Part shown: in pieces, positions 24,696 through 61,809 of the stretch
Layout: every line of letters begins with the position of its first letter
Position numbering within the stretch: the first letter of the stretch is position 1
Position numbers and translations under genes: made by a program
Virus record (IMG/VR): IMGVR_UViG_3300029305_005484
Length of the DNA stretch: 64,000 nucleotides
Reading direction: 5' to 3' (one strand)
DNA from: a virus
Taxonomy: Duplodnaviria; Caudoviricetes
The notes under the pieces: generated by a model
The model's input: the letters and a program-made list of their open reading frames with translations, nothing else
What the model was told of the DNA's origin: nothing
Databases searched by the model: none

Positions 24696-24781
24696 GGGGA
24701 ACCAATTTTGTTAAGTTAACTTTCTCTAGTTATCGAGATTTTCCTTAGATTACAGAAAACTTACTTAACAAAACTGCAACC
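24696..24781 (+). repeat. 86-bp inverted-repeat element, copy 1
   Basis: GGGGAACCAATTTTGTTAAGT...ACTTAACAAAACTGCAACC; about 88-94% identical to three other copies, no indels. Confidence 0.95.
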
Positions 24782-25140
24782 AACAAGAATTATTAGATAA
24801 TTATTTACCTTATTATGCATATAATCCCCATAATGATCCTAATAGAAATAATAATAATGAACATGGGATATGTAAAATTGGTAAGGTTGTATTTTCATAT
24901 GGAACATCTCAAACATTAGGTTGGGAATTTGATAGTGTTTTAAATGGATATACACGTGAAATAATATTTGAATATCCTTTTACAATTGAACCTGCAGTTT
25001 TTTGCTCAGCATATTATCCATCAGGTTCTCCAGCTAAAACATCAATTTTATATAAAAATAATTCAAAGATTAAGTTATACTGCTCATCTGGTGTACAAGG
25101 ATTATGGGTATATTGGTTAGCTATGTCATTTGCAGAGTAA
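24769..25140 (+). other. Start-less tail-fibre-tip cassette 1 (123 codons, gp53/H-lectin-like pattern)
   Basis: QNCNQQELLDNYLP...GICKIGKVVFSYG...IIFEYPFTIEPAVFCS...VYWLAMSFAE*; no usable ATG or RBS. Confidence 0.75.
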
Positions 25141-25171
25141 TTTTAGAAAAAATCAAACAAAATATTAATAT

Positions 25172-25837
25172 ATGAAAATGAGGTGTATTAATATGAAATA
25201 TAATGAATTACTTTTTGAAGTTTTTGAGTATCAATGTGACAATACTGATTTAAAAGATGATAAGAAAATACCTAATTGGGTAAAAGCTTGTGGTATTGGT
25301 GCTCTGATTACAGCTTTTATGGGATTTGGTAAACTTATAATCAAAAATAAAAAGGCGTTTGAAAAAGAATTACAACGTCTTAAAAATAACGCTGAATTAG
25401 CGAAACAAGATGCAAAAATGACAGGTATTGACGAACTATCCGATTATTCTCAAGAGTATTTTGAAGTTTGTTTAAAATATAATGAAGGAATTTTAAAACT
25501 TAAAAAAGATGTAAATAAAGGCATTTTTAAACCTTCTGACTTGAAAGACAGAGTTAAAGATTTATATAAACAAATCGATGATATTGAACGAGCAAATTCT
25601 AAAATGATTTCAATATTTAAAAAATATAAAGATTATATTGGATTTTCTGATAATGATTTAGATATGCTTGAAAAAGGTATGGCTGATGAAAAAGAAGAAT
25701 GTAAAAAAGAACTTGATAAGTTAAATGAGAAGATTTCTAAGGTTAAAAATATCAAACTTTCAGTTCATGAGGCATGTCATTCTGGTGAAATTACAGCAGA
25801 AGAAAGAGATTTGTTATTATCTACTATAGAAGAATAA
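25172..25837 (+). CDS. Probable head/virion protein with shared C-terminal motif
   Basis: Late motif at 25156; ends KLSVHEACHSGEITAEERDLLL; true start may be the third Met (after GAGGTG). Confidence 0.6.
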   Translation: MKMRCINMKYNELLFEVFEYQCDNTDLKDDKKIPNWVKACGIGALITAFMGFGKLIIKNKKAFEKELQRLKNNAELAKQDAKMTGIDELSDYSQEYFEVCLKYNEGILKLKKDVNKGIFKPSDLKDRVKDLYKQIDDIERANSKMISIFKKYKDYIGFSDNDLDMLEKGMADEKEECKKELDKLNEKISKVKNIKLSVHEACHSGEITAEERDLLLSTIEE

Positions 25838-25854
25838 AAGTATAAGATACTAGG

Positions 25855-26499
25855 TTATCCTAGTATCTTATCTTTATTTTCAACATAAAATGATTGAATT
25901 GATTTTTCAAGGCTTTCTAAATTATCTGAATTATAAGGTGTATATAATTCTTCTTGGTCTTTTTCGTAGAATACAACTGTTCCGTTTTCTAATGTTTTTC
26001 TCATATTAATAACTCTTTGGTTTGTAGAACCTACCCAATGATATTCTTTTAATGCTAATTTTTCTACATATTTACCATCACACAAAACATCAATATTAGA
26101 AAGAATCCATCTTAAACACATTGAGTTTGTAGAGTCATTAAAAGCTTTAATTCTGTCAAGTAAGTTATCAAGTGTAAATCCAGTATATAACCAGATAGTT
26201 TTACTTCTTCCAAATTTCTTTCTGAATTTTAGTATCAAATCACAAAGTTCATGTGTATAATAACATAAACCATCTCCACCTGTTAATGTAAGTCCATTAA
26301 CATGATCTTGTGATACATATCCAAATAATTCATCCATAGATTCTTCAGTAAATTCTAATCCATCATCTTTATCATGAGTTATAGGATTATGACAACCATA
26401 ACAATTATGATAGCATCCCGATACCCAAAGAAGAGTTCTTATACCTTCACCATTTTCGATATTATTAGCCTCGATATTGTGAAATTTCAAACTAATCAT
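25855..26499 (-). CDS. nrdG: Anaerobic ribonucleotide reductase activating enzyme (radical SAM)
   Basis: NGEGIRTLLWVSGCYHNCYGCHN, GLTLTGGD, WLYTGF, DVLCDGKY, WVGSTNQRVI. Confidence 0.93.
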   Translation of the reverse strand: MISLKFHNIEANNIENGEGIRTLLWVSGCYHNCYGCHNPITHDKDDGLEFTEESMDELFGYVSQDHVNGLTLTGGDGLCYYTHELCDLILKFRKKFGRSKTIWLYTGFTLDNLLDRIKAFNDSTNSMCLRWILSNIDVLCDGKYVEKLALKEYHWVGSTNQRVINMRKTLENGTVVFYEKDQEELYTPYNSDNLESLEKSIQSFYVENKDKILG

Positions 26500-26604
26500 C
26501 TCCTTTATTTTTATTAAAAATACGTTAATGAAATTATTATAATCAATAAATTATATATAAAAACATTTATCTAATATGATTCTTAAGAAAGGAAGGTAAC
26601 TTAT

Positions 26605-26931
26605 ATGGGAACCATTATTGGACGTCATTACACTCCTCAAGATGAAAATGGTAATCGTGATATAATTCACGTTGAAACACAAATAGATGCTGTTCTTGAT
26701 CCTGTAACTGGAGTACCTTTAAGAAAGCAATTAGAAAAGATCAAAGAGCAATTAGTTCCTGTAGATGTAGAAGCTAATAAGCCTGGATTTATAACTCCAG
26801 AATTGGTTAAGAAGTTAAGCGATATGGCTAGTAGTACATTTGTTTTAGATAGTGTTAAACCAACATTTGCAAGCGGAGGTTATTGGTTAAACATTTATGA
26901 CCCTTCAATGTCAACTACTGATACAGAGTAA
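26605..26931 (+). CDS. Small tail-fibre-associated virion protein
   Basis: Late motif at 26562; HVETQIDAV and GFITPE motifs reminiscent of fibre N-termini. Confidence 0.5.
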   Translation: MGTIIGRHYTPQDENGNRDIIHVETQIDAVLDPVTGVPLRKQLEKIKEQLVPVDVEANKPGFITPELVKKLSDMASSTFVLDSVKPTFASGGYWLNIYDPSMSTTDTE

Positions 26932-27032
26932 TTTTTCTGATAATGACTTCATTTAATTTATAAACATTAAATTAAATTGAAGTTAGAAAATAACTTAAAT
27001 TAATTTATAAAAAGAAAGTGAGGAAATTTATA

Positions 27033-27782
27033 ATGGCATCAAAAAATGTTGTTATTAAACGTAAAATCGGGAACGATATTTATGAATTACTTCCAAAGAC
27101 AAGTGGAGCACAGGTAGAAGTATCTTATGCTGGTACTGTTCAGACACTTGCAGCTGCATTATCAACGATCTACACAGATGTTAACTCTTGGAATACTTTC
27201 AAGGCTGATGTTGATTTCGCTGGTACAGATAGCGCACTTGATACATTGAGAGAACTTATCGATATGATTAGCAAAGAAGATGTTGCTACATCTATCGCTG
27301 GTGAACTTAAAGCTATCAAAGAAAACATTGATCAGGTTGAAGCTGATTTGGCTGAATTACAGCAAACAGTTGCTGATAACAAGACATCTGCTGACAACAA
27401 CTACAATGCAAATAAGGCTCTTATCGAAGGTCTTCGTACAGACGTAGATGCTAACACAGCTCAGGTTGCTCTTAACAAAGCTGCACATGAGAAAAACGCT
27501 ACAGATATCACTGCTGTTGGTGGAAGAGTTGATACTCTTGAAACAGATAACACAGCAAATAAAGCTGCAATCGCTAAGAATGCTGAAGATATCATTGCTG
27601 TTGGTGGAAGAGTTACTACTCTTGAAACAGATAATACAGACAATAAAGCTGCAATCGCTGAAAACGCAGCTGCTATCTCAAGAATCAATGATATCGCTGG
27701 TGCTCAGGCTCGTGTAATCGTAGCTGAGGAAGTTCCTGAAGATTTGTCAGAACATGACTTATTCATGCAAATCGTTGAGTAA
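27033..27782 (+). CDS. Coiled-coil fibre/whisker protein
   Basis: YELLPKT, ALDTLREL, heptad repeats; late motif at 26963; start revised to ATG 27033. Confidence 0.7.
   Translation: MASKNVVIKRKIGNDIYELLPKTSGAQVEVSYAGTVQTLAAALSTIYTDVNSWNTFKADVDFAGTDSALDTLRELIDMISKEDVATSIAGELKAIKENIDQVEADLAELQQTVADNKTSADNNYNANKALIEGLRTDVDANTAQVALNKAAHEKNATDITAVGGRVDTLETDNTANKAAIAKNAEDIIAVGGRVTTLETDNTDNKAAIAENAAAISRINDIAGAQARVIVAEEVPEDLSEHDLFMQIVE
27495..27662 (+). repeat. Two tandem 84-bp (28-aa) coding repeats
   Basis: NATDITAVGGRVDTLETDNTANKAAIAK / NAEDIIAVGGRVTTLETDNTDNKAAIAE. Confidence 0.9.
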
Positions 27783-27881
27783 TCTTGAATGATAACTCAT
27801 AAATTGACTTTATAATTCACATAGGTGGGGATGCTAATTAATTTTAGCATCCTCATTTATTTTTTAGAAAGGGTGTAAAAT

Positions 27882-28367
27882 ATGAAAAACATTTTATCTT
27901 ATTTGAAAAAAGAATCAATTCTATTTTTACTTGGAGGAATTTTATATTTCTTCATAGAAATACTTTATAGAGGATATTCACATTGGACGATGTGTATTGT
28001 AGGGGGACTTTGTTTCGTACTTATGGGACTTATAAATGAATTATTTACATTTGATATGTATATAGAAATTCAGGCTATAATATCTTCTATAATAATAACC
28101 ATTCTTGAATTTATTTCTGGGTATTTAATCAATATAGTTCTAAAATGGAATGTATGGGACTATAGTAACATGCCATTTAATATAATGGGTCAAGTATGTT
28201 TATTATTTACATTCATGTGGTTCTTTTTATCATTTGTAGGAATTGTTGTAGATGATTATATTAGATATATTGCATTTGATGAGGAGAAACCAAAATACAA
28301 ATCTTATTTATTATTAAAAATTAAAACATATTGTGAACTTAAAAGATTAAATTCTAAGTTGAAATAA
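27882..28367 (+). CDS. Four-TM membrane protein (putative ABC-permease/CmpB-like family)
   Basis: YFFIEILYRGYSHWTM, ILEFISG, VWDYSNMPFNIMGQVCL. Confidence 0.8.
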   Translation: MKNILSYLKKESILFLLGGILYFFIEILYRGYSHWTMCIVGGLCFVLMGLINELFTFDMYIEIQAIISSIIITILEFISGYLINIVLKWNVWDYSNMPFNIMGQVCLLFTFMWFFLSFVGIVVDDYIRYIAFDEEKPKYKSYLLLKIKTYCELKRLNSKLK

Positions 28368-28456
28368 ACTTTATATTAAAATACTAGTATGATATCTTAT
28401 GTATCATATATCTAGTTCCAAAACTGTTAAGATAAAATCTTTTATCGCATTTGAGA

Positions 28457-28486
28457 AGAAGAAGTAGTCATATGACTACTTCTTCT
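28457..28486. terminator. Perfect 30-bp palindrome, bidirectional terminator
   Basis: AGAAGAAGTAGTCATATGACTACTTCTTCT. Confidence 0.8.
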
Positions 28487-28494
28487 ATCTACTT

Positions 28495-28959
28495 TTAAAT
28501 TTTAGAAATTAGACTTGTTAACATAGATTCTGTATTATCTGTAATTATATTATATTTAATACATGCTGCTATATAATAATATGAAGAGTTATTTATGGCA
28601 CTAGGTGAAATACAATTACAAATTAACATTGAATTTTTATTAAACAATTTTTGTTTTACTGAATATGAACATGATAAAACAGGTCTATTAGAATCATCAA
28701 AATAAACATCTGTTGTATTTGATGATAAATTTTTAAGAAATTGAATTAGTTGATTTGATATCTCATCTGATAAATCAACAAACTTTTCATTTGATTTATA
28801 TACTTTCTTTTTAAGTTTATTAAGTGGTATAATATCCGGATATTTCTTTTCATATTTTTTAAGATTAATTTTAGCTTTAGAATAATCTTTTGCTGCCTTT
28901 AAAGGTCCAATCACAGTACCTTTGAATACTTTTCCAAATGGAATAACTATTTTTTCCAT
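28495..28959 (-). CDS. Hypothetical protein
   Basis: 154 aa, GAGGTG RBS. Confidence 0.7.
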   Translation of the reverse strand: MEKIVIPFGKVFKGTVIGPLKAAKDYSKAKINLKKYEKKYPDIIPLNKLKKKVYKSNEKFVDLSDEISNQLIQFLKNLSSNTTDVYFDDSNRPVLSCSYSVKQKLFNKNSMLICNCISPSAINNSSYYYIAACIKYNIITDNTESMLTSLISKI

Positions 28960-29038
28960 ATTATTTTTTCACCTCATTTCATTAAAATAATGTCTTATAA
29001 TCATTTCAACAAAAATATTAAGTTACAAGATAAAGGAA

Positions 29039-30784
29039 ATGAAAATAATGAGTAATAAGAATAAGGAGATAATTCAACATAAAAAAGAACATGATGTTTC
29101 TATTAAGTTGAAAAATATTACTAATTTTCAACAACTTAAATTAAAGAAAATTAACTTAAAACTTGAAATTTTTACATTAGATTCTATAGTTGCTTTTCTT
29201 TATAAAGATAGTGTCCTTAAAACACAAAAGTTGTTAAAGAATATTTATAAATTATTTAAAAATATAAATCCAGAACCATACATGTTAAATCCAGATTTAC
29301 GAACACGGTTCTGGGTAATTTTAAAATCTTTAGAATTAATGGTAGATAGTAGATTAGAATCTTATAATGCCATTAAATCTGAACTTATGGATGACAAAGA
29401 TTCAGATGAATTAATCCATGAGTATATCAAAAACATCAATGTACTCTATATAGGGTATGAAGATAGTAAAAAACTCATTAGAAAATTAGATGATAGATTA
29501 CGTTTTGGTTATGTAATAACTATTAAAGAAGTACTACAAGAATTTCTAAATGCAATTGAAGATGAAGAATATTCATCATATAAAGATATAGCAGATGATT
29601 TAGAACAACTTGCTATTTCAATTGTAAATATTAGAAGAAATACGAATAGTTTAGATAGTGAAGAAAAATTTTCATTAGATCCTGATAAATTTGATGATAT
29701 GATATCAGTCGCTGTAACCAAGTTACAAGATAGAATGAAAATTTTTAAAACAGGTATTCAAGGTTTAAATACTTTATTAGCACCTGGTTATTTATCTAAA
29801 CGTCTATATATGTATCTAGCATTTCCTGGTGGTGGTAAATCACAAATACTTTTAAAGTCAGCTTTAGACATTAAGAAATACAATGGACATGTTAAAGCGA
29901 AAGATCCTCAGAAGAGACCTGCAGTTTTATATATTACTATGGAAAATAGTGTTGAAGAAACTATTGAACGTATATTCAATATGACTGTATCTTCTGATGA
30001 TATTAGAAATTATACACCTGCTCAAATTATTAAGAAATTAAAGTCAGGTGGTAATTTAACACTTACAGATGATAATAATATAAATATTATCATCACTTAT
30101 TACCCGAACAGATCTATTGATACAAATGATTTATATGGAATTATTCAAGAATTAGATGATGAGGGTGATGAAGTTATAGCTTTAATTCTTGATTATGTAA
30201 AGAGAATAGCTCCTGCAGAAAAAGCATCTAGTGAAAAAGAAGAACTTAAGAATATTACAAATGAACTTAAGAATTTAGCAACTCACTTTGATATACCGGT
30301 TATAACAGCACAACAATTGAATCGTGTTGCATCATCTGTTGTAGATGCTGCATTACAAGCTAAAAAAGAAGATGTTACTAAACTTATCGGAAGAGATGGT
30401 GTTGCTGGTGCTTGGGAGATCATCGAAAATTCAGACTGGGTCTGTGTTTTAAATCAAGAAGTAAAAACAGAAACTTTAGAATTATTCATGACATTTAAAT
30501 TATTAAAACGAAGATATCGTTCTAGTGATGAAAATGAAAGAATGAGAAAATTAGAGTATTTTAATCAACCTTATGAACCAGGTAATGAAATTAGATTAAT
30601 GGATGATGTTGAATTGGATAGACCTCTTATGATTTACAGTATGAGTAACCAAATGAGTTCATTAGAAGATATGAAACGTGGTAAAAAGAATGCTGTAGAA
30701 AGAGAAGAAAAAATGCATAAAAATATTTATCAAATGATGGAATTTGATCCATTTGATGATACACAATCAATTCAATATACATAA
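29039..30784 (+). CDS. dnaB: Replicative SF4 (DnaB-like) helicase
   Basis: Walker A AFPGGGKS, YITMEN, ILDYV, PVITAQQLNR. Confidence 0.9.
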   Translation: MKIMSNKNKEIIQHKKEHDVSIKLKNITNFQQLKLKKINLKLEIFTLDSIVAFLYKDSVLKTQKLLKNIYKLFKNINPEPYMLNPDLRTRFWVILKSLELMVDSRLESYNAIKSELMDDKDSDELIHEYIKNINVLYIGYEDSKKLIRKLDDRLRFGYVITIKEVLQEFLNAIEDEEYSSYKDIADDLEQLAISIVNIRRNTNSLDSEEKFSLDPDKFDDMISVAVTKLQDRMKIFKTGIQGLNTLLAPGYLSKRLYMYLAFPGGGKSQILLKSALDIKKYNGHVKAKDPQKRPAVLYITMENSVEETIERIFNMTVSSDDIRNYTPAQIIKKLKSGGNLTLTDDNNINIIITYYPNRSIDTNDLYGIIQELDDEGDEVIALILDYVKRIAPAEKASSEKEELKNITNELKNLATHFDIPVITAQQLNRVASSVVDAALQAKKEDVTKLIGRDGVAGAWEIIENSDWVCVLNQEVKTETLELFMTFKLLKRRYRSSDENERMRKLEYFNQPYEPGNEIRLMDDVELDRPLMIYSMSNQMSSLEDMKRGKKNAVEREEKMHKNIYQMMEFDPFDDTQSIQYT

Positions 30785-30788
30785 AAAA

Positions 30789-30826
30789 GAAAAGAGAAAT
30801 CTACTTTTTTTGTAGATTTCTCTTTT
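30789..30826. terminator. Bidirectional terminator
   Basis: AAAAGAGAAATCTAC / GTAGATTTCTCTTTT. Confidence 0.85.
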
Positions 30827-30832
30827 ATTATT

Positions 30833-31438
30833 TTATATTTTACTAATTAATGATTCATAAGAATCATATGCTTCTTCTAATAATTCTAAAGATACTCTTT
30901 TACTATGATATGAAAGATATGCAATCGCAAATGTTGTACATAAATCGTTTGTATAATGATTTATATACAAATTCTCTATATATTTATAAACAGATTTATG
31001 CATATTCCTTAGATTTGATTTTTCATTCAATCTTTTCTTAAATCCTATATCTTCTAAATTAGCAAGAGTATAGTTCATTGGATATTTAATAATATCATAT
31101 GCAAGTTGTCCGTGTTCAATATATAACCATTTATACATATTTTTACTATCCTGTGTAATAAGAAAAGATTTATCACCCTTTACAAATATCTTTTCATATA
31201 ATTCACTTAGAATTTTATCTTTACTAAGTTCAGGAATTTCTAGTTCTGCTAATTCCTTAGATAGATAGAATATACATGTGGTTTTATCAAACATAAGATG
31301 ATTTAGAATACGTTCTACTATACTATTATCTTCTGTTGGTAAAGATAATCTTGTTTTTTCATTAAATAAATAACCTGTAGAATCTGTGTTATAATCTATA
31401 TTAAAAGGAATACTATCTAGATATTCATCATTTTTCAT
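30833..31438 (-). CDS. Hypothetical protein
   Basis: 201 aa in early-motif operon. Confidence 0.75.
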   Translation of the reverse strand: MKNDEYLDSIPFNIDYNTDSTGYLFNEKTRLSLPTEDNSIVERILNHLMFDKTTCIFYLSKELAELEIPELSKDKILSELYEKIFVKGDKSFLITQDSKNMYKWLYIEHGQLAYDIIKYPMNYTLANLEDIGFKKRLNEKSNLRNMHKSVYKYIENLYINHYTNDLCTTFAIAYLSYHSKRVSLELLEEAYDSYESLISKI

Positions 31439-31441
31439 ACA

Positions 31442-32083
31442 TCAATCTCCTTCTATTTTAACAGAATTTAAATATTCTATTTCTTCTTCTACCAAATGGT
31501 GTCTATGTAAAGTTATATCTTTATATCTGTTATATTGAGAATCTATCATATCTTGATATGTAACTAGAGTTTTATTTCTATAAGTCGTTTCACCAGTAAA
31601 ATAAGATACTAAATATGGATATACTAAAGCTTTATATAATATATCCAATGTGATATTAAATGGTTCATATAACTCTTGATACCAGTGAAGAGAATATAAC
31701 TCATCAGATATTCTTAAATACACCACTTCTTGAGCAACTTCTGGGATATTAAGTTTAAATATTTCATATAAACTCCCTCTATATTCTATAGGTATATTTT
31801 GCATAATTAATGATGCTCTTATAAGAGCATCAGATGTTACATCATAAATACTATTTAGAGAAATGATATAATCTTCATAATTTATTTCAGCATCAATATA
31901 ACTATGTTTAATTTTATTTCGCTCTATATGTATTTCATTTCCAGATATTTGTGATGTATCGAATAAAACCTTTTCTTGTATATGCGTATCCATATAATCT
32001 ACAGATATCATTTCCATTTTTATTTTATCCTCCATAATATGATTTATGCCTAATATCACATTGTCTACTACGTATAAGGGCAT
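31442..32083 (-). CDS. Hypothetical protein (true start probably internal)
   Basis: ORF; GGAGG precedes MEMISV. Confidence 0.7.
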   Translation of the reverse strand: MPLYVVDNVILGINHIMEDKIKMEMISVDYMDTHIQEKVLFDTSQISGNEIHIERNKIKHSYIDAEINYEDYIISLNSIYDVTSDALIRASLIMQNIPIEYRGSLYEIFKLNIPEVAQEVVYLRISDELYSLHWYQELYEPFNITLDILYKALVYPYLVSYFTGETTYRNKTLVTYQDMIDSQYNRYKDITLHRHHLVEEEIEYLNSVKIEGD

Positions 32084-39816: not shown

Positions 39817-40203
39817 TTATTCAGTTCTTTCCCAGATATATACTGCTTTATATGGAGGCATATTATTATGTGGTTGATTTCCTCCTGTACCTGTTGAATA
39901 TTCGACATTATCAACTGCTTTATTTGAATTCGCTGTCCAAGAACCACCTGTTTCAGCTGATATCCAGTTCACACCCCAGTTCATTGTAAGAGCATGATTA
40001 TGAAGAGGCATTTCATTTACAGTTAATGTATGACTTGCTTCACCACCAATACTATTAACATCATAAGAGCCACCAGCACCAAGTAAAAATCTATCATCAA
40101 TTCTTATCCAAGTTATACCACCATATTCTTCAATAACCTTTTCCATAGTATCTAATGTTGTAGAGTGTATAACCATACCAACATGTGATCGGTTGCAGTT
40201 TTG
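39817..40203 (-). other. Tail-fibre/baseplate-tip cassette 2 (128 codons)
   Basis: QNCNRSHVGMVIHST...GGITWIRIDDRFLLGAG...GGEASHTLTVNEMPLHNH...TGGNQPHNNMPPYKAVYIWERTE*; domain pattern begins before the in-frame Met, no clear RBS. Confidence 0.8.
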
Positions 40204-40276
40204 TTAAGTAAGTTTTCTGTAATCAAAGGAAATTACCGATAACTAGAGAAATTTAACTTAACAAAATTGGTTCCCC
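40191..40276 (-). repeat. 86-bp inverted-repeat element, copy 2
   Basis: 5 differences from copy 1. Confidence 0.95.
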
Positions 40277-40292: not shown

Positions 40293-40565
40293 TTAAGAAT
40301 CTATCTTTCCTTGTATTAGAATAAATTCTGCAGGATCATTAGAATTCCATACACTATCAAAATGTAAAACATATACTTCTTTTGTTTCATTAGTATGTTC
40401 TCTAGTTATACCTCTACATATCCAATGTGCATTAGAATAGCATATTGCAGCTAATAATGCATAACCATCTCTAATAGTTTGATATACATAATTTGCTCCA
40501 ATACCATCTAAAGTTACTTTATCTATATAAAATCTTTCTTGATTAGTTTGTTGGTTGCAGTTTTG
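40293..40565 (-). other. Start-less cassette 3 (90 codons, beta-rich)
   Basis: QNCNQQTNQERFYIDKVTLDG...DGYALLAAIC...AEFILIQGKIDS*; no Met; stops 16 bp before copy 2. Confidence 0.7.
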
Positions 40566-40638
40566 TTAAGTAAGATTTCTGTAATCTTCGTAAATTACCG
40601 ATAACTAGAGAAAGTTAACTTAACAAAATTGGTTCCTC
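40553..40638 (-). repeat. 86-bp inverted-repeat element, copy 3
   Basis: 8 differences from copy 1. Confidence 0.95.
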
Positions 40639-50489: not shown

Positions 50490-50576
50490 TCTCTCTTTAT
50501 TGTAATATTAAAAAATTGTCTTTTCTATCTTACAAAAAGAATTAGAGTACAGAGATGTTTCTCTGTACTCTAAAAA

Positions 50577-51293: not shown

Positions 51294-51299
51294 TTCCTA

Positions 51300-52910: not shown

Positions 52911-52978
52911 GTTTTAAATCCCCTTTCTTTTAATACCTCATGAAACACATTGTTACTGCATTTCATGAGGAATAATAG

Positions 52979-54661
52979 TTAAATAGTTCTTAAGAAAAAT
53001 CCAAGTTCGTCTGTAATTGAATTCTTTTCTACGTTAATTTCGGTTCCATAAATATCTGGATTTTCATAACAGCAATATGTAAATACAGTATTATTAATAG
53101 TGGATAAAATACTCATAATTGAGTCTTTATCAATCTCTTCCAAATATTTATACTTATTATGAAGTAAGTCATCGATAATGTAACTTTCTTCACAATCTTC
53201 TTTGAACTTCGCATTTCTGATTAAACGCGTATTAATTTTCTCTTTAATGTTTCCAGTTAAAATATACGGAAGTGCAACTCTATCAGTAAACACATTCGTA
53301 TTGTCAAAACCAGATTCACGTAAAATTCTTTTCTTAAGAATTAATGCAAGTCTAATAAAGTTGTCTCTAGAAATACCTAATGTATTTCTAAATGAACCTA
53401 AATTTCCTGCAAATAAAGATGTTATTAACATTTGATGAAGTGGTTGAATATTAAAGTGTTTCTTATAATAATCAAGTTCATCATCTGTAATTTCAAATCC
53501 ATATTCATTAATTAGTCTTTCAACTTCATCTGTTACAGATTCTTTTGCGATAATAATACTTCCCTCATCAAGTTTTTCAAGTTGCATTTCCATTTTATCA
53601 ACACCTGATAAACCGTCTGCATTTCTTGCATATGTGAGTTCTGTGAACCCTTTACTATGTTGCTCTTTAATGAAATACATGAGTTGATATTTTATTATTG
53701 TCTTGATAAACCCAGTGATATTCTCTTTGTATTTCTTTGCATTTTCATCCCAGTTCTCATTAAACTTGAATTTTACTAAATTTTCACTAATTAGTACAAC
53801 TCTAGTGAAACGATGAATTACTGAAAATTCATCAATACCAAGAATCTCTCTTTGAGCATACATCTTATCATTATTACTTTTATTCTCCATTACCTTCGCT
53901 TTTACATAGACAAACAACTTGTTATACATATTGCATGTATCACTAAATATGTCGAATAAACCTTTAAATGCATTGAATAGATGAGGAGTTGTTTTATTTA
54001 CAATAATTTTATTTTTTGCCAAATAATGGAAAATTACTGGACTCATCATCTTAATACCAAAACTAATCTTTAACAAAGTTTTGATATGTTCATTTGTAAA
54101 CTCTAAAGATTCTAAATGTTTCTTTTCTTTTGTGATGTATTTCTTAGAGCCTTCATCAGACTCAATATCATCAAGATAATTATCATCAACTAACTGATGG
54201 ATTTTTCTGATTATTGACGGTGTAAACATAACTTCATAGATATGGTCTATGAATTGTCCTAGTTGTGCTTCACCTGTAAAATAAATTTCTCCATCTTCAT
54301 TATCGGTAACAAACTTAAGATGAAGATAAGCTGTCAATAGTTCATGTTCTTTATCATATGCATGAATAAAGAAATTAACATATCTACAGATAACTGGTAG
54401 TTGATTCGAATATGAATCTTTTCTAATCGTAAATTCATGATATCCTGCCAAACTCTTAATACCAAAAATCTTATGAAATTCAATATAACATTTTTGTGGC
54501 TCATATGTTAAATATCGCTCTTCATCAGTTTCTACCCATTCATTAATAGGCGCCTTAAGAGTGGACCTGTCAATCACTGGTTTTGAAACAACTTGTTCAC
54601 CATCTTCAGTTGTTTCTAAAACTTCGGATTCTTCCATTTCAATTTTCTTTCTTCGTCCCAT
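52979..54661 (-). CDS. Probable sigma-like promoter-specificity subunit of non-virion RNAP (AR9 gp226-like)
   Basis: 560-aa helical protein, early motif at 54698, two genes from the chaperonin as recalled for AR9 gp228/gp226; mainly a synteny inference. Confidence 0.55.
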   Translation of the reverse strand: MGRRKKIEMEESEVLETTEDGEQVVSKPVIDRSTLKAPINEWVETDEERYLTYEPQKCYIEFHKIFGIKSLAGYHEFTIRKDSYSNQLPVICRYVNFFIHAYDKEHELLTAYLHLKFVTDNEDGEIYFTGEAQLGQFIDHIYEVMFTPSIIRKIHQLVDDNYLDDIESDEGSKKYITKEKKHLESLEFTNEHIKTLLKISFGIKMMSPVIFHYLAKNKIIVNKTTPHLFNAFKGLFDIFSDTCNMYNKLFVYVKAKVMENKSNNDKMYAQREILGIDEFSVIHRFTRVVLISENLVKFKFNENWDENAKKYKENITGFIKTIIKYQLMYFIKEQHSKGFTELTYARNADGLSGVDKMEMQLEKLDEGSIIIAKESVTDEVERLINEYGFEITDDELDYYKKHFNIQPLHQMLITSLFAGNLGSFRNTLGISRDNFIRLALILKKRILRESGFDNTNVFTDRVALPYILTGNIKEKINTRLIRNAKFKEDCEESYIIDDLLHNKYKYLEEIDKDSIMSILSTINNTVFTYCCYENPDIYGTEINVEKNSITDELGFFLRTI

Positions 54662-54733
54662 TTCAAATCTCCTTTATATATTTTTACCTCCAAACAAATA
54701 ATATATTCATATGATAAAAAACCAATAAAATAT

Positions 54734-55561
54734 TTATCTTTTAGTGGTACTTCTTTTAGCTACAACCTTTTTCTTTTTAGATATTCCAGTTGTTTTTGGT
54801 TTTACTGGATTATGATAATCTGATAATGTAGAACGTGTAGGAGATTTTATATTTGTTTTTGTTGGCATTCGTTTTTGTACATCACCTATAATCCTTTTAA
54901 CACTTTTTTCTACTAATGACCTATCAACTCTTCCTTCTTCTCTCGCTTTCTTTTCAACATCATAAGATGTTGATTTCATAGAATCCTCAGTAGTTAATAC
55001 TGAATCTACTAAATCTCTGAATTGTAATTTTCTTGTGTATCTAAGAGCTGATTTAGATAGATAAGTTAATCGGTTATCATATAAAAACTTTGTAGCAAAA
55101 TATATAGATTTGTCGTACATAAGTTCCATGTTTTTGTTAGCTTGCTCTGGGAGGGTATCTGCATATTCAGGATTTAACTTCTCTTGAAGAGCATCTATCA
55201 TGTAACCATGTAATTTGTATAATGCTGCATATTTATACACAAAACTAGGGCTATTTGAAAAGAATTGAATTACATAAAAATCTAATGTGTGTTCTTTAAC
55301 CATAGTATCAGTTTTTGGCATGAATTGTATTACAACATCATATGTTTTTCCTGGTTGTGATTCAGATGGAACTTTAACGTGAATATAATAAGATTCATCC
55401 AAAATGGAATATCCTACTACTTTAATAAGAGATTTAAACTTTTCATATTTTGGATTAAGTTTTTCTCCTACATCAGTAATAGATACTCCAAATGGATGAA
55501 CTAAAAAATCACTTAAAGTTTGATATACTGGATCTCCAACATGTAATAGGTTCTTATCCAT
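54734..55561 (-). CDS. Hypothetical protein
   Basis: 275 aa, YDVVIQF...FFSNSPSFVYKYA; basic tail. Confidence 0.75.
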   Translation of the reverse strand: MDKNLLHVGDPVYQTLSDFLVHPFGVSITDVGEKLNPKYEKFKSLIKVVGYSILDESYYIHVKVPSESQPGKTYDVVIQFMPKTDTMVKEHTLDFYVIQFFSNSPSFVYKYAALYKLHGYMIDALQEKLNPEYADTLPEQANKNMELMYDKSIYFATKFLYDNRLTYLSKSALRYTRKLQFRDLVDSVLTTEDSMKSTSYDVEKKAREEGRVDRSLVEKSVKRIIGDVQKRMPTKTNIKSPTRSTLSDYHNPVKPKTTGISKKKKVVAKRSTTKR

Positions 55562-55585
55562 TTCTCAAACCTCACTTTATTTCAA

Positions 55586-57691
55586 TTAATAATTTCCTCT
55601 TGTAATCACTAATTGATTTCCTGTTGTTAATAAACTTACTAAGTCTGATGATGCAATTAAGATTTCTCTATCTGTAGCAGCACTATTAATTACTCTTCTA
55701 TTGAAAGCGATTGTAGGTACTGTACTTTCACTCATATCCAAATCAAGAGTTGTACCTGAATACAACTCAATCTCATTGATAAGTGTGAATAAATCAGTTT
55801 CTGGATTATCACGATATGTGACTTTCAGATAACTCATGAAATCATTAATATATGAAATGTCTTCTTGGAAAATTACTCGAACTCCAATGTTTTCGGAAAT
55901 ACATCCAAGAATATCACCCATTACATCTTCACTAGAAGTGTATAAATTTTCTTTAGCAATGATATTTGACAAGTCGATTTTCTTATTACTAAATCCGTTT
56001 TCAAGAACACAAAATCTCACATGTCTAAATGCTTTAAACATAACTTCCAGTAAGAATTTATCTGCATCTGATCTTTCAGGACAATCTATCTCATCCCTAA
56101 TAGCGTTTAATAAAGTGGTATGTCCACCATTGATAACACCATTTCTGTATGCAGACAAAGCTGCTTTTACAGCATCATCCATAGCATCAACTAAGAATTG
56201 CTGTTTGAAATCTGTTGATGCACCAACTTCGATTTGTCCCATTTTAAGTTTCAAACTTAGATATCTCTTTTGAGCATCATCTACTTCAAAGTTAAATGTA
56301 CCAAGTTTGCTGTACTTTTCGATAACAGCATCAAGTTCAACTTTAGCATCGTTTACATATTTCTCATACAATGATTCATCATAATCAAAATCTCTAAAGA
56401 TAGATTCTTTATCATAATGAAGCATAACTTCACCGGTATATCCGATTCTGAATGAGAATTCTTCATCAAGAGGAACAACTCCAATTTCACCAGCATCTGC
56501 ATTTTTTAATACATATGGAACTTGTGCATGGGAGTTAGAATTTTTAGCCATAATCATATTACCTTCAATTTTTCGGTTATCAAGATTGATATACTGAAGA
56601 AGGTTTGATACATCTGATTTAGTATCAACAAGGTCTTTCGTTCTCTTAATGATTTCATATTCAATAGACTGAGTTATAAGTTGTGTATTACAAAGCATTG
56701 CCAAGTCACTAACACGTTTCTTATCTGAATTACGAGAATTTCTATATCCCATAATTACAAGATTGATATCTTTTGTCTGTCTATATTCAGAATTTAAATC
56801 ATTAAGAATGTCACCTTGAAGTGTTACCTCATCATAATTAGGTGCAATACAAATAAGTTTTCTTCCTCTCATCTTGCATAAAACTGAAAGAGGTGCCAAA
56901 ATATATTTGTATGAATTAAGGCTAACTTTATGATCAAATATAACAACATCACATTTTTGTGCATGTAATGATTGGTTGTCATTATTTACATAGATTCTGT
57001 CCATAAGTTTTGCATGGAACATGAATCCGTCAACAACTCTTCCTTTTGTCACACCATCTGCAGCTTTAACTACACTAATTGCTGGATATCCAATTTGTCT
57101 GTATAAATCAACAATTATGTCTGTAAGTTCTTTATCTGCATTTGATGATACATATACTACTTGTCTTATATATTCACACATTTCTTCAAGAGGTAAACTC
57201 TTAATATCTGTGGCATATAAACTAAGACGTTTATTAACATCTTCAACAAGTTCTTTTGTTCGATTAAGAACGTTTCTAGGTAAGAAAAATAACTTATTAA
57301 TCTTATCTGAATTTTTCTTAAATTCTTGATACATTGCATTTGCAGAAACTACAGCACTAGTAGTTCCATCACCTACTGCAAAATTAAGTCTTCCACAGAT
57401 ATCTGCAATCATTCCGGAAATGACTTGGTCAACGTATCCATATTGTGAATTGTAACGAATATTTTTCATGATAGTAAAACCATCTTTCGTTACATGGTAA
57501 CCAGGTGGTTGTGAAATAATAGCATGTGCACCAACTGGTCCTAAAGATTTTTGTAATGTACTAGCTATCTGGTCAAACACAGATGAAATTCTAGAATCCA
57601 TTACATCCTTTGATATGACATTAATCTCTGGGTCAAATGCTACAATAGACTGAGCAAATGTCATATCTTTTTTCTTTTTACCTTTTGACAT
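55586..57691 (-). CDS. groEL: Phage GroEL-like chaperonin
   Basis: SLGPVG, VTKDGFTI, VGDGTTS, DAMDDAVKA, GVINGG. Confidence 0.92.
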   Translation of the reverse strand: MSKGKKKKDMTFAQSIVAFDPEINVISKDVMDSRISSVFDQIASTLQKSLGPVGAHAIISQPPGYHVTKDGFTIMKNIRYNSQYGYVDQVISGMIADICGRLNFAVGDGTTSAVVSANAMYQEFKKNSDKINKLFFLPRNVLNRTKELVEDVNKRLSLYATDIKSLPLEEMCEYIRQVVYVSSNADKELTDIIVDLYRQIGYPAISVVKAADGVTKGRVVDGFMFHAKLMDRIYVNNDNQSLHAQKCDVVIFDHKVSLNSYKYILAPLSVLCKMRGRKLICIAPNYDEVTLQGDILNDLNSEYRQTKDINLVIMGYRNSRNSDKKRVSDLAMLCNTQLITQSIEYEIIKRTKDLVDTKSDVSNLLQYINLDNRKIEGNMIMAKNSNSHAQVPYVLKNADAGEIGVVPLDEEFSFRIGYTGEVMLHYDKESIFRDFDYDESLYEKYVNDAKVELDAVIEKYSKLGTFNFEVDDAQKRYLSLKLKMGQIEVGASTDFKQQFLVDAMDDAVKAALSAYRNGVINGGHTTLLNAIRDEIDCPERSDADKFLLEVMFKAFRHVRFCVLENGFSNKKIDLSNIIAKENLYTSSEDVMGDILGCISENIGVRVIFQEDISYINDFMSYLKVTYRDNPETDLFTLINEIELYSGTTLDLDMSESTVPTIAFNRRVINSAATDREILIASSDLVSLLTTGNQLVITRGNY

Positions 57692-57749
57692 ATTCTGTTC
57701 TCCTTATATCAAATTTTTATTTAAAGTGGTGTTTTTAAAGATATTAGAA

Positions 57750-58469
57750 TCAAGCGATTCTAAATGTTGCCCACTTAAATGTATGCTTAGTTGATAAATA
57801 TTTCATATCTATCAAAAAAGTATCTTTTTTATCATCAGTGAAATTATATCTATAATTCACTGGTAATAATACTGATGAAAAATCCAGTTTTCCTAATTCT
57901 TCTAATATTAGTACATTCATCACGTCTGAAAAGAAATAAGTTGTATCAGAAGGAATTGTTTTTAAAACATCTCTGATATCACCTGTTACTAATTTTACAG
58001 AATTTCCAAATTTTTTCTCAATATCATTTTTAACAAATTCATTTTCTTCAGGATAATAAATTACTACTTCTTTTACTAATGACATAGCAAGTAGATTATT
58101 TATAATAGGAACTACTAATGTATCAACATCTGAATTGAAAAATATTTCTTCAGAATTTACTAAGTTATTGAGTAAATTATCTAAAGTTTCAATTTCAATA
58201 GTTTCTTTATCCTTTAATAAATCAACCAATGGATTCCTATATTTTCTTTCTAAATAAAAATCAAAAAGTGATTGTGGTGATAAATATTTTATAACGTCAG
58301 TATTAAATAAATCATACACACTTTCATTATTTCTAAAAAAAGAAAGAAATGTAAACCATTGTAATTGAATAGTATCTGTATATTCAACAAATACACATGT
58401 TGAATTTTGAAATAATCTGCTAGATGATCTAAATCTGACATTATTATCAAATTTCATAGGTTCTTTCAT
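57750..58469 (-). CDS. Hypothetical protein
   Basis: 239 aa, GAGGTG RBS. Confidence 0.75.
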   Translation of the reverse strand: MKEPMKFDNNVRFRSSSRLFQNSTCVFVEYTDTIQLQWFTFLSFFRNNESVYDLFNTDVIKYLSPQSLFDFYLERKYRNPLVDLLKDKETIEIETLDNLLNNLVNSEEIFFNSDVDTLVVPIINNLLAMSLVKEVVIYYPEENEFVKNDIEKKFGNSVKLVTGDIRDVLKTIPSDTTYFFSDVMNVLILEELGKLDFSSVLLPVNYRYNFTDDKKDTFLIDMKYLSTKHTFKWATFRIA

Positions 58470-58486
58470 TTAATTCACCTCAAAAA

Positions 58487-58527
58487 TAAAAGATGGGAAT
58501 AAGATTTAAATCTTATTCCCATTCATT
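58487..58527 (-). terminator. Intrinsic terminator
   Basis: ATGGGAATAAGATT / AATCTTATTCCCAT. Confidence 0.8.
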
Positions 58528-59352
58528 TTATGAAAATGGTAGTTCGTCATTTTGTCCTGGAGCTGGGAAATCAAAGAATCCACCTGTTGCTCCACTACCA
58601 CTACTGTAAGAATTTTGTGGTGCAGCGAAATTCATTCCTTGTGTTTGACCACCATATTGGTTGCCATTTGAGTTACTTTGGTATGAGTTTCCACTGTTAT
58701 TCTGAAATGATTTTCCTCTTTCAGAATGGAATTTTCTTACATGTTCTGAGTAAGGTAATAATAATTGATTGCTTGTAAGCATATTCAGGAATGAATTGAA
58801 GTCTGCATTCGCATGAATAGTTTTGTTAGATAATCCTGTATTAGGATTATAATCCAACATTACTACACGTTTATCAAACTTATGTTTGAATGTGCTTGCT
58901 GGAGAAGCAATATTATTACTATCTACCATACCATAATAAACGAAATAAAGATCTGGTGTTTCTCCACCATCTGATGCTGGTGTCATTTCGAAACCTACAA
59001 CATTTCGTTTAGGTTCACGACCTGTTTCGACTGTAACACTCAAAAGTTCTGGACAAGGTTCTCCATTAAGAACTACTCTGTCATAAACTGGTTTGATCAC
59101 TGTTCTGAATTGTTCTACTAAAGCTTCACAAGCTTCGATTGTTAATGCTGTTTTTCCTTGACGATTTTGGTCATATTGCATTACTCCATTTCCGTCCACT
59201 CCAATTGCTGGACTAATTGTAATGCTGTAACTTTGGTTCCATAATGATAGTGCCATAGATGAAACATCTGAATTGAATGTTTTAAATCTAGTATTTACAC
59301 TAACACCATTGTTTTGTTGTGTGTTCATTCTATTTGAGTTATTTCCCCACAT
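58528..59352 (-). CDS. Putative single-stranded DNA-binding protein
   Basis: Beta-rich core, N/Q/G/S-rich linker, acidic tail NDELPFS; early motif at 59392. Confidence 0.55.
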   Translation of the reverse strand: MWGNNSNRMNTQQNNGVSVNTRFKTFNSDVSSMALSLWNQSYSITISPAIGVDGNGVMQYDQNRQGKTALTIEACEALVEQFRTVIKPVYDRVVLNGEPCPELLSVTVETGREPKRNVVGFEMTPASDGGETPDLYFVYYGMVDSNNIASPASTFKHKFDKRVVMLDYNPNTGLSNKTIHANADFNSFLNMLTSNQLLLPYSEHVRKFHSERGKSFQNNSGNSYQSNSNGNQYGGQTQGMNFAAPQNSYSSGSGATGGFFDFPAPGQNDELPFS

Positions 59353-59412
59353 ATGGTTTTACCAATCCTTTCTAAGTATATATTCATATTTATAATATAT
59401 CAAATAAATTAA

Positions 59413-60168
59413 TTATTCGATAATTTCACGGGGTAACAGAGGATTTTCCTCTCGGTACTTCTTTAAAATTCGATTTCTTATTTCTCCTTCGATTTTGATT
59501 CTCATAGGAATGCGAATCATATTACAATATTTTTCGGTAAAATTACCAGTTAAAATAAAATCTTCATAATATTCTGCGACCAATGTCAATTCAGTTAACG
59601 GTTCATCGCCTTCACATAATCGTAAGAAATCATCAACATCTAACTTTACATCATGGACTATATAATTCATAATGTCTGATAAGTTAGCTAAAATAGTAGC
59701 ATCGTCTTCATCAATTTCTTTTTTAAAAGCTTGAGTTGTTATGTCTTTTCTTCGAGTTGCATTTTCGATAAAGAACTCTTTATTTTCGTTAATGTAATTA
59801 TAGAATAGATTGAAGAAGTTATTCTTCATATTAATAATAAAGAAACGATATGTGAAATGAATCAAATCTTGTTGTTCTTCTCTACTCATTTCTTTTAAAT
59901 TATTAATACCTATTCCCAATCGATTCATAAGTGTCTCTTCCATGAAATCAATAAAATTATCATGATAGGACAGTAACGTATCGTTCTCATCATCATCTTC
60001 AACTAATTCTTTAGAATAATTATATTGATTTATGAATGATGAGATGTAATCCATTCTAAAGTTATCTGGATTACCAAATTGCATTAATATGTTTTGCTCT
60101 AATAAACCCACAGGAACTTGTGATAAGAAAGTACTATCTTCATTATTAAAAACATTTGTAATACTCAA
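59413..60168 (-). CDS. Hypothetical acidic protein
   Basis: 251 aa, TTG start with GAGG RBS. Confidence 0.75.
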   Translation of the reverse strand: MSITNVFNNEDSTFLSQVPVGLLEQNILMQFGNPDNFRMDYISSFINQYNYSKELVEDDDENDTLLSYHDNFIDFMEETLMNRLGIGINNLKEMSREEQQDLIHFTYRFFIINMKNNFFNLFYNYINENKEFFIENATRRKDITTQAFKKEIDEDDATILANLSDIMNYIVHDVKLDVDDFLRLCEGDEPLTELTLVAEYYEDFILTGNFTEKYCNMIRIPMRIKIEGEIRNRILKKYREENPLLPREIIE

Positions 60169-60241
60169 AATTTTTCAACCTCTCTTTTTTATTTATTTTG
60201 GTTTTTGAAATATTTCCGAGTATTTTTGACCTTCATTCTTA

Positions 60242-60586
60242 TTAGGTATTTTTATTATCTTTCCTTAATGCATCGTTCATAGCAATTTCGTTATGAGGAT
60301 TAATTTTAGGATCGATATGATTTAATTCGTGGAAATTTTTTACAAAATTCTCTGAATCTTCAATTGTGATTAAATTCCTATTTCCAGATATTAAGTGTGT
60401 TAACACTCTTGCAGAATGCGCAAAAATTTCAACATGTCCACATTGGTTACATGCTACAACTTTAATAGCTTCTTCAAGTTTTGTATCTGTAGAACTTTTT
60501 GGAATAAATCCAGATGATATATTTTTATCTTTTGATCCACAGAATTTGCATTTCCATCTATGTAATCTTTCAGCTGATACTAACAT
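60242..60586 (-). CDS. Zn-ribbon protein
   Basis: CKFCG...CNQCGH. Confidence 0.7.
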   Translation of the reverse strand: MLVSAERLHRWKCKFCGSKDKNISSGFIPKSSTDTKLEEAIKVVACNQCGHVEIFAHSARVLTHLISGNRNLITIEDSENFVKNFHELNHIDPKINPHNEIAMNDALRKDNKNT

Positions 60587-60681
60587 ATAGTATACCTCAC
60601 TTTCTAATCATCAATTTTCCTATGATTTAATGAAGTGTAGTTTTTTAAATTATAAATAATATGAGCAGAGTAGATAAAAAT

Positions 60682-61326
60682 CTACTCTGCTAAATTTGTT
60701 CGTTTTAAAACTTCTAAACGATATTTTTGATTTACATTAGGATATTTATCTCTATCAACAAGTTCAAAAAACATTGATTGTGGTCTTGCAAATGTTTCAA
60801 ATGGATAATATAATGCTTGATATATTATAAGCATCTCTCCAGTTTCTGTGTGTTTAGCAATATCTGTAACTCTATATAGATATTTATTTTGTAAAACTTC
60901 ATCATCCTTTATCAGTTCTTGTTTAAAATGCTTTATAATATCACCAATTTGAATTCTCGGTTGATCGTATTTCATAGTATCTATATTTTTATCACTAATA
61001 ATAATACCATTTCCATTAATATTATTAAGACCATATGACATATGACCTATATTATCGTATTGATTTTTATATAGGTTAAAAAATAAATCACTATAATCCA
61101 AATCTGGAAAGTTATATTTTATTATAGATACTGATTCTTTAATAGTATCTTCATTAACATCTTTCTTTTTTGTAGTTTTTTCCAAAACCTTTTTCCAATC
61201 AATACTATTTAATATAACTTTAGGACATGCGGTATAATCACATTCTAAATCTTTTAATATACTTTCCCAATCAATTTCTTGATGTTGTGATTGTACAATT
61301 TGTTCCATAATCATTCTCCTTATCAA
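60682..61326 (-). CDS. DUF1653-domain protein
   Basis: KHFK...YRVTDIAKHTETGEMLIIYQALY...ARPQSMF...KYPNVNQKYR. Confidence 0.85.
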   Translation of the reverse strand: MIRRMIMEQIVQSQHQEIDWESILKDLECDYTACPKVILNSIDWKKVLEKTTKKKDVNEDTIKESVSIIKYNFPDLDYSDLFFNLYKNQYDNIGHMSYGLNNINGNGIIISDKNIDTMKYDQPRIQIGDIIKHFKQELIKDDEVLQNKYLYRVTDIAKHTETGEMLIIYQALYYPFETFARPQSMFFELVDRDKYPNVNQKYRLEVLKRTNLAE

Positions 61327-61361
61327 TAAATTTTATTAATAAGTTAAATTATATATAAAAA

Positions 61362-61736
61362 CTAACTATTTGAAATATATGTACAGTCATATGTAAATAA
61401 TACATACTTCTCCCCTATGTCAAGACCCAAAGATATAATATTATATGTTCTATCATAAGATACATGTGTAGGGTATACATCTCCTGTAGTTGTATCACAA
61501 ACAAGAAGTGTTCCAAATTGACTAGATAAATGAGTGTTAATTGGATGCCATGGTAATGCTAGAATAGATGTTCCTTTAGCTCTAGCTGATAACCAACCTC
61601 TAACTTTTACAGTACAAACTCTTCCATATTTATAGCAAACACTTTCCCCTATAGTACAATTCCATGCTGTACAATTTCCACTAACAACTTCTAAGTTTGG
61701 AATTTTTCCTTCTAATTCTTCTTGATTGCAGTTTTG
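61362..61736 (-). other. Start-less tail-fibre-tip cassette 4 (124 codons)
   Basis: QNCNQEELEGKIP...CYKYGRVCTVKVRG...ILALPWHP...FTYDCTYISNS*; no Met; Y-K-x-G-x-V...LP-x-x-P pattern of fibre head domains. Confidence 0.75.
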
Positions 61737-61809
61737 TTAAGTAAGATTTCTGTAATCAAAGGAAATTATCGATAGATAGAGAAAGTTAACTTAACAAAAT
61801 TGGTTCACC
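61724..61809 (-). repeat. 86-bp inverted-repeat element, copy 4
   Basis: GGTGAACCAATTTTGTTAAGT...ACTTAACAAAACTGCAATC on minus strand. Confidence 0.95.

Follow-up and report, generated by a model that had tools for sequence, protein, structure and literature searches.

Silent tail-fibre tips behind dispersed 86-bp elements in a large phage, and a constant fibre module that probably relocates among them

Programmed recombination that swaps the tips of tail fibres is a known kind of system, and phages are known to reach new receptor specificities by three routes: mutagenic retrohoming by diversity-generating retroelements (DGRs), small invertons with 2-6 alternatives, and the use of several fibres at once. 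In the vsa (HvsR) and vpma/vsp (Xer1/Mbr) systems of Mycoplasma, a family of silent genes depends on one expression site, which consists of a promoter with or without the 5′ coding end and which they lack themselves; the recombinase sites are short and lie at or near the 5′ end of the genes. A Xer-like recombinase connects the silent genes with this one site (PMC2268961). These loci are the closest in logic to the system considered here, and shufflons and the invertons of Mu and P1 are the closest in purpose. The subject of the present analysis is a 64,000-nucleotide (nt) stretch, hereafter the window, of the IMG/VR virus record IMGVR_UViG_3300029305_005484 (Duplodnaviria; Caudoviricetes), in which copies of an 86-base-pair (bp) element stand directly before reading frames devoid of usable start codons. 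Examined over the whole genome, these elements ("pads"), the 35 silent fibre tips behind them and a single mobile module carrying the constant part of a tail-fibre gene (module F) probably constitute a DNA-level switch of fibre tips, in which F relocates between pads.

The 86-bp element, its cassettes and the acceptor gene

The window covers positions 27335-91334, read on the minus strand, of a virus record of 275,512 bp, so that subtracting a window position from 91335 gives the genome position. The record ends in direct repeats and has a G+C content of about 27%; the phage is a jumbo phage from an animal gut and is probably lytic. The original prediction, made from the window alone, placed four 86-bp copies there, and alignment confirmed them as gap-free copies with 95% mean column identity. 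Each ends in TAA-CAA-AAC-TGC-AAY and the frame stays open for 123, 128, 90 and 124 codons, as had been predicted, and BLASTP detected no similarity among the four peptides, in agreement with their description as mutually unrelated. In the whole genome, the element occurs in 35 copies (four of them inside the window), all of 86 bp and 86-100% identical to the query copy, and behind every copy an open frame of 90-204 codons continues in one and the same register, with Q-N-C-N (mostly Q-N-C-N-Q-Q-E) as its first residues, never a random frame; the background rate is low, as at least 90 open codons follow only 1.1% of all TAA triplets in the phage genome. An in-frame ATG, GTG or TTG within 40 codons with a preceding Shine-Dalgarno (SD)-like tetramer is present in only one of the 35 cassettes. 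The cassettes occupy 22 intergenic loci, as singles or tandems of two or three, between 29 and 220 kb of the genome, with 13 elements on the plus and 22 on the minus strand in genome orientation. The scatter over at least 37 kb in both orientations that had been described for four cassettes therefore stands as dispersal, and its actual extent is 35 cassettes over about 190 kb. Together with the resident tip of the expressed fibre, the silent tips fall into about 29 sequence families. Since gene callers overlook or shorten all 35 cassettes, their annotation in such genomes calls for caution.

Positions 11-21 (TTTTGTTAAGT) and 68-78 (ACTTAACAAAA) of the element are perfect 11-bp inverted repeats. 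These arms are essentially invariant across copies (a single substitution in one copy), as are AACCAA (positions 5-10), CTGCAA (positions 79-84) and an inner TTTCT/AGAAA pair; the centre (about positions 34-52) varies in a few alleles, and stops are present in all three frames. The hairpin fold is more stable than shuffled sequence in three of the four window copies (z -2.3 to -5.2), and a covariation test of the hairpin gave no excess over shuffled controls. The stems never vary and the variable centre carries no compensatory change, a pattern that fits protein-binding DNA as well as a fold; judged from sequence, the invariant arms and their AACCAA and CTGCAA flanks would be more in keeping with sites for a protein than with selection for an RNA structure. 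At their 5′ ends (window 24686-24719 and equivalents), most of the elements also have a purine/G-rich, SD-like stretch directly upstream of element position 5 and a TTG-TTA-AGT-TAA mini-open reading frame (ORF) at positions 13-24; these features might be a recombinase arm or a translated decoy.

Outside the 35 full copies, only one partial element exists in the genome; it comprises positions 1-24 at genome 185922, and about positions 1-21 of it form the left border of F. A fibre gene with a strong ribosome-binding site (RBS) starts about 155 nt downstream (475 amino acids (aa), genome 186101-187528), and a protein search revealed that its N-terminal part is common to many phage tail-fibre proteins. 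Its junction ...QNQIDEL-NCN-LNEF... is encoded as ...GAGCTA-AACTGCAAC-CTG..., in which the 11 nt AAACTGCAACC match element positions 76-86 exactly and share their frame, so that the prediction of a constant fibre N-terminus encoded elsewhere, with AAAACTGCAAY at the junction, was borne out by this gene. The constant part corresponds to the first ~378 codons, and the resident tip after NCN consists of about 97 residues and is 34% identical to the silent cassette at genome 123081. Thirty-five nt past the fibre stop, a full element with a further cassette follows (genome 187563). No other long ORF with the core in a fibre-like context was found in the genome; the ORFs at genome 104284 and 158371, which contain N-C-N codons, encode unrelated proteins and were rejected as acceptors.

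Module F, one per genome, consists of the promoter region and the constant part (about 1.3 kb). Its left border is the outer left element end, GG-AACCAA-TTTTGTTAAGT, and its right border is AAA-CTGCAA-CC, which encodes N-C-N. With the left element end at its left border and the right element end at its right border, F thus sits inside one pad, replacing the palindrome interior. A motif, AAAAACATTCTTTTAATGTGA, lies upstream of the fibre RBS, and its variants stand just upstream of the RBS in at least ten other genes, so F probably brings its own promoter. This recurrent motif, near AAAAACATTyTTTTAATrTGA, is placed 10-30 nt upstream of the RBS in those genes and 70 nt upstream in F (genome 186008), and by its sequence it probably represents a class of phage promoter; its sites in the window are 26559-26579 and 17209-17229 on the plus strand and 28977-28997 and 50503-50523 on the minus strand.

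Module F in related strains and the tips of the window

Comparison with related strains shows F in other pads. In a contig from another sample (L032), the encoded fibre, P0003, is 96% identical over the first 80% of the protein, its constant part, and DEL-NCN is followed by the tip of pad 185502, which this genome keeps silent. The sequence upstream of that pad runs straight into the F left border, and a complete palindrome follows the tip; F and the palindrome interior have therefore been exchanged relative to this genome, with crossovers within GGAACCAATTTTGTTAAGT on the left and within AAACTGCAACC on the right. In a second contig (P0002 on L033), the tip attached to this constant part has no counterpart in the present genome. 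A pattern scan of metagenome contigs for the constant-core junction yielded an 88-kb contig, L045, in which F (96.8% identical) is located between the upstream flank of pad 143305(-) and the core and tip of pad 142835(-), a site 43 kb away from the position of F in this genome and on the opposite strand. Both flanks in L045 are collinear with this genome (145011->143280 and 142760->142322), and its fibre of 499 aa ends in a tip 84% identical to silent cassette 142835. Assembled contigs of four public runs were additionally aligned to 20 kb around F. In runs X9 and X13, the constant part runs on into sequence that differs from the resident tip, and the latter is found on a separate contig, which does not extend into the constant part; several joints beside elements in the aligned contigs, all short-sided (21-29 nt), were disregarded as repeat artefacts. 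Because F is fused in-frame to other tips in related strains, switching takes place at the DNA level, and the constant module is the relocating part. The original idea that tips are joined to a constant part holds in that the near-identical fibres of L032 and L045 carry tips silent here after NCN, but tips are not brought to a fixed locus, as it is F that moves.

This last point bears on the reading in which the expression locus at 186-187 kb is fixed and tips arrive there either by gene conversion, as in pilE/pilS or vlsE, or by single-crossover inversion between the core of the gene and the core of a pad, as in Mu, P1 or shufflons. Neither conversion nor a single inversion would place the constant module of L045 43 kb away on the other strand between collinear flanks, and at the 13 directly oriented pads, a single crossover would produce a lethal deletion. 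Moreover, the left border of F is a precise crossover point, which a fixed locus does not need. In favour of a fixed locus, this genome and L032 differ at neighbouring pads, which could also be depicted as an exchange of tips; 22 of 35 pads are inverted relative to the fibre gene, so that the geometry would permit single inversions; and L032 runs on into the opposite strand of the 124-kb region, as expected of an inversion between pads. On balance, a fixed locus is regarded as improbable.

A second reading denies any dedicated switch: the elements would be an intergenic repeat (terminator, insulator or repetitive extragenic palindromic (REP)-like sequence), and the arrangements would be rare accidents of recombination between co-infecting relatives. 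The documented differences are indeed between strains only, the same arrangement is seen in 13 contigs, and the element lacks covariation. An intergenic repeat, however, would hardly leave 35 of 35 cassettes locked in frame with a shared NCN(QQE) linker and, apart from the one with an early start and SD, start-less, nor would it fuse an element with stops in all frames to them at a fixed register. The crossovers are confined to microhomologies of 11-19 nt at the two F borders (about 19 nt on the left and about 11-13 nt on the right), and at least four pad occupancies exist among a handful of strains 96-97% identical in F. The same module borders, left ...TTAGTTAAGTAAAATAAACA and right CTAAATAGTAA (L-N-S-N/K), recur in a sister lineage of ~65% aa identity with different upstream flanks and tips, on short contigs on which pads are not visible. 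Accidental recombination is accordingly given little credence.

Joining at the level of RNA or the ribosome, with the element as a trans-splicing acceptor of the fibre mRNA or a site of ribosome bypass or shunting, is very improbable: the stable hairpin of three window copies and, in most copies, the SD-like purine/G stretch and the TTG at positions 13-15 before it speak for such a reading, but DNA-level fusions exist and suffice, the window has no Rfam match at gathering score and no group I or II intron-like core, no stem shows a compensatory change, and direct reading of the sequence revealed neither matching take-off and landing codons in the cassette frame nor a near-cognate start after TAA. 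The ideas of a group I or II intron 3′ end (no domain 5 (D5)-like hairpin), a T4 gene-60-type bypass, an SD-hairpin shunt and a transfer-messenger RNA (tmRNA)-like element were dropped after the DNA-level fusions had been found.

Relocation of F being the preferred reading, the content of the library can be compared between the same strains. At the 155 kb locus, L045 (reverse complement 3567-3713) has one cassette in place of two here (genome 155055-155633), with only 42% identity; runs X9 and X13 lack the cassette at 187563, and the cassettes at 193.3 kb are not those found here. The cassettes at a given locus thus vary from strain to strain, and the library itself is subject to turnover. When a viral contig collection was searched with exact patterns and with proteins, neither the element nor a close relative of the fibre came up in any other record, and the contigs of the distant fibre homologues P0009 and P0011 (46-57% identity) do not contain the 86-bp element. 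On one of them (L042:9266-10414), P0009 (57% identity) is encoded two genes upstream of a reverse transcriptase (RT) gene (RVT_1), which suggests that relatives of the phage diversify the neighbouring tail gene by DGR instead of cassettes. A second dispersed repeat of about 135-220 bp, unrelated to the 86-bp element, is present in at least eight copies of 75-86% identity (window 10688-10822 and 11477-11632, corresponding to genome 80513-80647 and 79703-79858; genome 16349, 150517, 175322, 176551, 237477 and 268865), and it drew many loose contig ends and extra depth when the run contigs were aligned.

The elements and cassettes inside the window are as follows.

24696-24781, plus strand: element copy 1, a putative landing pad (genome 66639-66554), with arms TTTTGTTAAGT and ACTTAACAAAA and the outer 6-nt sequences AACCAA and CTGCAA
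24769-25140, plus strand: putative silent tip cassette 1, 123 codons from QNCNQQELL; first ATG at codon 119, no RBS
40553-40638, minus strand: element copy 3 (genome 50697-50782), which opens a tandem array of two cassettes and has a terminator-like hairpin before it
40293-40565, minus strand: putative silent tip cassette 3, 90 codons; no in-frame ATG, GTG or TTG
40191-40276, minus strand: element copy 2 (genome 51059-51144), 16 bp past the stop of cassette 3
39817-40203, minus strand: putative silent tip cassette 2, 128 codons; Gp10_C or tail-collar-like tip, with a terminator-like hairpin after it
61724-61809, minus strand: element copy 4 (genome 29526-29611), an isolated pad
61362-61736, minus strand: putative silent tip cassette 4, 124 codons; no Met, first in-frame start TTG at codon 103

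The description of three of these cassettes as lacking a usable start or RBS, and of the fourth as having a domain pattern that begins before its Met, proved correct: cassettes 3 and 4 contain no Met, the ATG of cassette 1 comes only at codon 119, and that of cassette 2, at codon 10, has no SD and lies behind the start of the domain, which begins at the element boundary. Matches to fibre-tip patterns had been claimed for cassettes 1, 2 and 4, and of these cassette 2 was upheld, with hits to Pfam Gp10_C (E 7e-9) and to tail-fibre PHROGs, aligned at the C-terminal ends of the profiles. The other three window cassettes and the resident tip gave no match in profile searches against Pfam and PHROG. 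Cassette 4 nevertheless has relatives, P0124 and P0125, in which its domain is C-terminal and stands behind a neck motif like the QNQI..LN.N of the fibre junction; the neck of P0125 before the cassette-4-like domain, QDQITTVNNNL, resembles the junction of the phage fibre. For cassette 1, an embedding comparison provided a weak lead to Gp53-like_C; it shares 32% identity with the cassette that follows the pad at genome 187563, and no longer relatives of it were found. Cassette 3 has no family match. Direct evidence of tip function comes from two cassettes that are silent here and are expressed tips in other strains. All four window cassettes would likewise serve as tips, given that they share the site, the frame and the linker.

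Proposed relocation of F and the candidate recombinase

In the proposed mechanism, the 86-bp elements would be recombination sites ("landing pads") that precede promoter-less and start-less receptor-binding tips. The pad holding F would yield an in-frame gene composed of the constant part, DEL-NCN and the tip of that pad, and the remaining tips would stay silent behind the palindrome with its stops in all frames. F would then move to another pad, with the rest of the genome remaining collinear, either (a) by two crossovers, one in each short border sequence, which would swap F with the palindrome interior, or (b) by excision of F and subsequent integration at the arm/spacer boundary; a circular F, if formed, would have the right end of F joined to AACCAATTTTG. 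Each pad may be regarded as two half-conserved Xer-like sites, inverted and with the different spacers AACCAA and CTGCAA, of which the ends of F would carry one each. Sequential exchanges, left with left and right with right, could swap F at any distance and orientation of pads and restore genome order afterwards. Such a two-exchange swap matches this genome, L032 and L045, and the process would be site-specific recombination.

An 11-bp arm beside a 6-nt spacer is a Xer/dif-like geometry. The only tyrosine recombinase of the genome (341 aa, genome 202143-203168) has a SAM-like N-domain and a catalytic domain and looks catalytically intact; it scores above the NCBIfam XerA/"integron integrase" cut-off (NF040815), its best PDB match is XerA, and it reaches 91.9 bits against TIGR02249 (cut-off 265) and 52 against NF011946 (cut-off 435). 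The window itself contains neither a recombinase nor an RT, as the original prediction had observed, and this Xer-like candidate lies outside it. Searches of the whole genome gave no match for serine recombinases (PF00239; control genomes were positive) or reverse transcriptases (RVT_1), and none for the Y1 HUH transposase PF01797; the match to TnpB (PF07282) was sub-threshold only and inside a 1141-aa frame. The Xer-like recombinase may catalyse the movement of F by binding the 11-bp inverted arms beside the 6-nt spacers, an assignment made because the alternatives are absent from the genome.

Several points weigh against the proposed explanation. The recombinase is implicated by the absence of others, its gene is 15 kb from F and next to no pad, and the right border of F holds only a degenerate 11-bp arm with 6/11 matches. 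Past the expressed tip, L032 continues with an element and then with genome 124625->119148 on the other strand (L032:1676-7187), which would be either a ~60-kb inversion between oppositely oriented pads or an assembly chimera at a repeat. In run X13, element positions 11-78 abut position 5 of the F left border with the palindrome retained, an arrangement that a simple swap does not predict. This joint (L034:11073-11141 to L034:9427; genome 187572-187640 / 185926), seen as coordinates, gives a perfect arm-AACCAA-arm site and would fit integration of a circular F at the arm/spacer boundary of the right site of a pad better than a swap. No window cassette was found fused to the constant part in any strain. 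The evidence for switching is a between-strain comparison of assembled contigs; this genome was itself assembled as one contig, and 13 contigs of several samples show exactly its arrangement. This arrangement is hence stable enough to be the prevailing one in populations, and any switching is not so frequent as to scramble the population.

Relocation of F remains the probable reading, and on it we infer that switching could be frequent enough for a bet-hedging change of host range, with tips that would bind different receptors. A more far-reaching version, which is put forward tentatively and with more doubt than conviction, regards F as a non-autonomous mobile 5′ gene cassette that would be excised, possibly as a circle, by the Xer-like recombinase of the phage and re-inserted in-frame at any of the 35 pads, like an inside-out integron; ~36 unrelated tips would then be displayed one at a time at appreciable frequency, and cassettes would be shuffled and dispersed as a by-product. 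If relocation of F is true, it would add a fourth route to the three mentioned above, namely a choice among ~36 unrelated pre-formed tips stored across the genome, with reversed logic: the constant part goes to the tip, so that the genome between the sites suffers neither inversion nor deletion. It would also help to account for the ability of a large gut phage to deal with host surfaces that are diverse and that shift, and would represent a natural, in-frame and recombinase-mediated module exchange with very short sites. The catalogue of tips behind the defined junction DEL-NCN is a resource for studies on fibre modularity.

Comparison with described systems

The phage system resembles Mycoplasma vsa/vpma in that one expression module serves silent genes that have neither a promoter nor a 5′ end. 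The Mycoplasma systems, however, occupy one locus of 10-20 kb beside the recombinase gene and are reordered by inversions, whereas the phage has 22 loci over 190 kb on both strands and a recombinase gene that is not adjacent. The phage pads are 86-bp palindromes with two different outer spacers, and the module relocates with collinear flanks, as seen in L045. With the R64 shufflon (Rci), Mu Gin, P1 Cin and p15B Min, the phage shares the in-frame joining of a constant adhesin or fibre N-terminus to alternative C-terminal tips, the purpose of which is a change of recipient or host range. In those systems, 2-7 alternatives reside in one invertible cluster directly 3′ of the constant part, in contrast to the 35 dispersed cassettes of the phage, between whose pads single crossovers would need large inversions or deletions. 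Mu, P1 and p15B use serine invertases, and the phage genome contains no serine recombinase. Shufflon sites have one conserved arm with a short spacer and are acted on by a tyrosine recombinase; in the phage, the Xer-like enzyme and the 11-bp arms beside AACCAA and CTGCAA would be the candidate counterparts. Shufflons work by clustered inversion only, whereas the L045 module relocates between collinear flanks.

Integrons offer another set of parallels, including promoter-less cassettes, an imperfect palindromic site of similar size, tandem arrays, a tyrosine recombinase, and a palindromic site whose partner is a simple core within the expressed gene. Integron cassette arrays without an adjacent integrase, such as those of the clusters of attC lacking integrase (CALIN) type, also occur dispersed. 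The phage recombinase, however, falls far below the integron-integrase cut-offs. The phage palindrome lies 5′ of start-less cassettes and fuses frames, whereas attC lies 3′ of a cassette with its own start. The order in attC is RYYYAAC ... GTTRRRY, and that in the phage is GTTAAGT ... ACTTAAC on either strand, which is reversed relative to the stem. The mobile unit differs as well, being the cassette in integrons and a module of promoter and 5′ gene part in the phage.

Neisseria pilE/pilS and Borrelia vlsE likewise combine one expressed copy with a large stock of partial genes that are silent and lack a start, but copy into a fixed locus by homologous recombination over conserved coding flanks; the phage shares only ~19 and ~11 nt, and its module is found at different loci. 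DGRs, exemplified by Mtd of BPP-1, diversify the C-terminal receptor-binding part of a phage fibre as well, by mutagenic retrohoming, whereas the phage genome has no RT and would choose among ~36 unrelated pre-formed domains. Hairpin-ended IS200/IS605 elements differ, in that PF01797 is absent from the phage genome and PF07282 is sub-threshold only, and self-splicing introns or other known structured RNAs find no counterpart, with no Rfam match in the window and no covariation above shuffled controls. Full-text searches of the literature found no published description of such a system. What sets the phage system apart from the known swapping of fibre tips is the scale (35 plus 1 tips), the genome-wide dispersal on both strands, the two-ended palindromic site 5′ of start-less cassettes, and a constant module that relocates without rearrangement of the genome.

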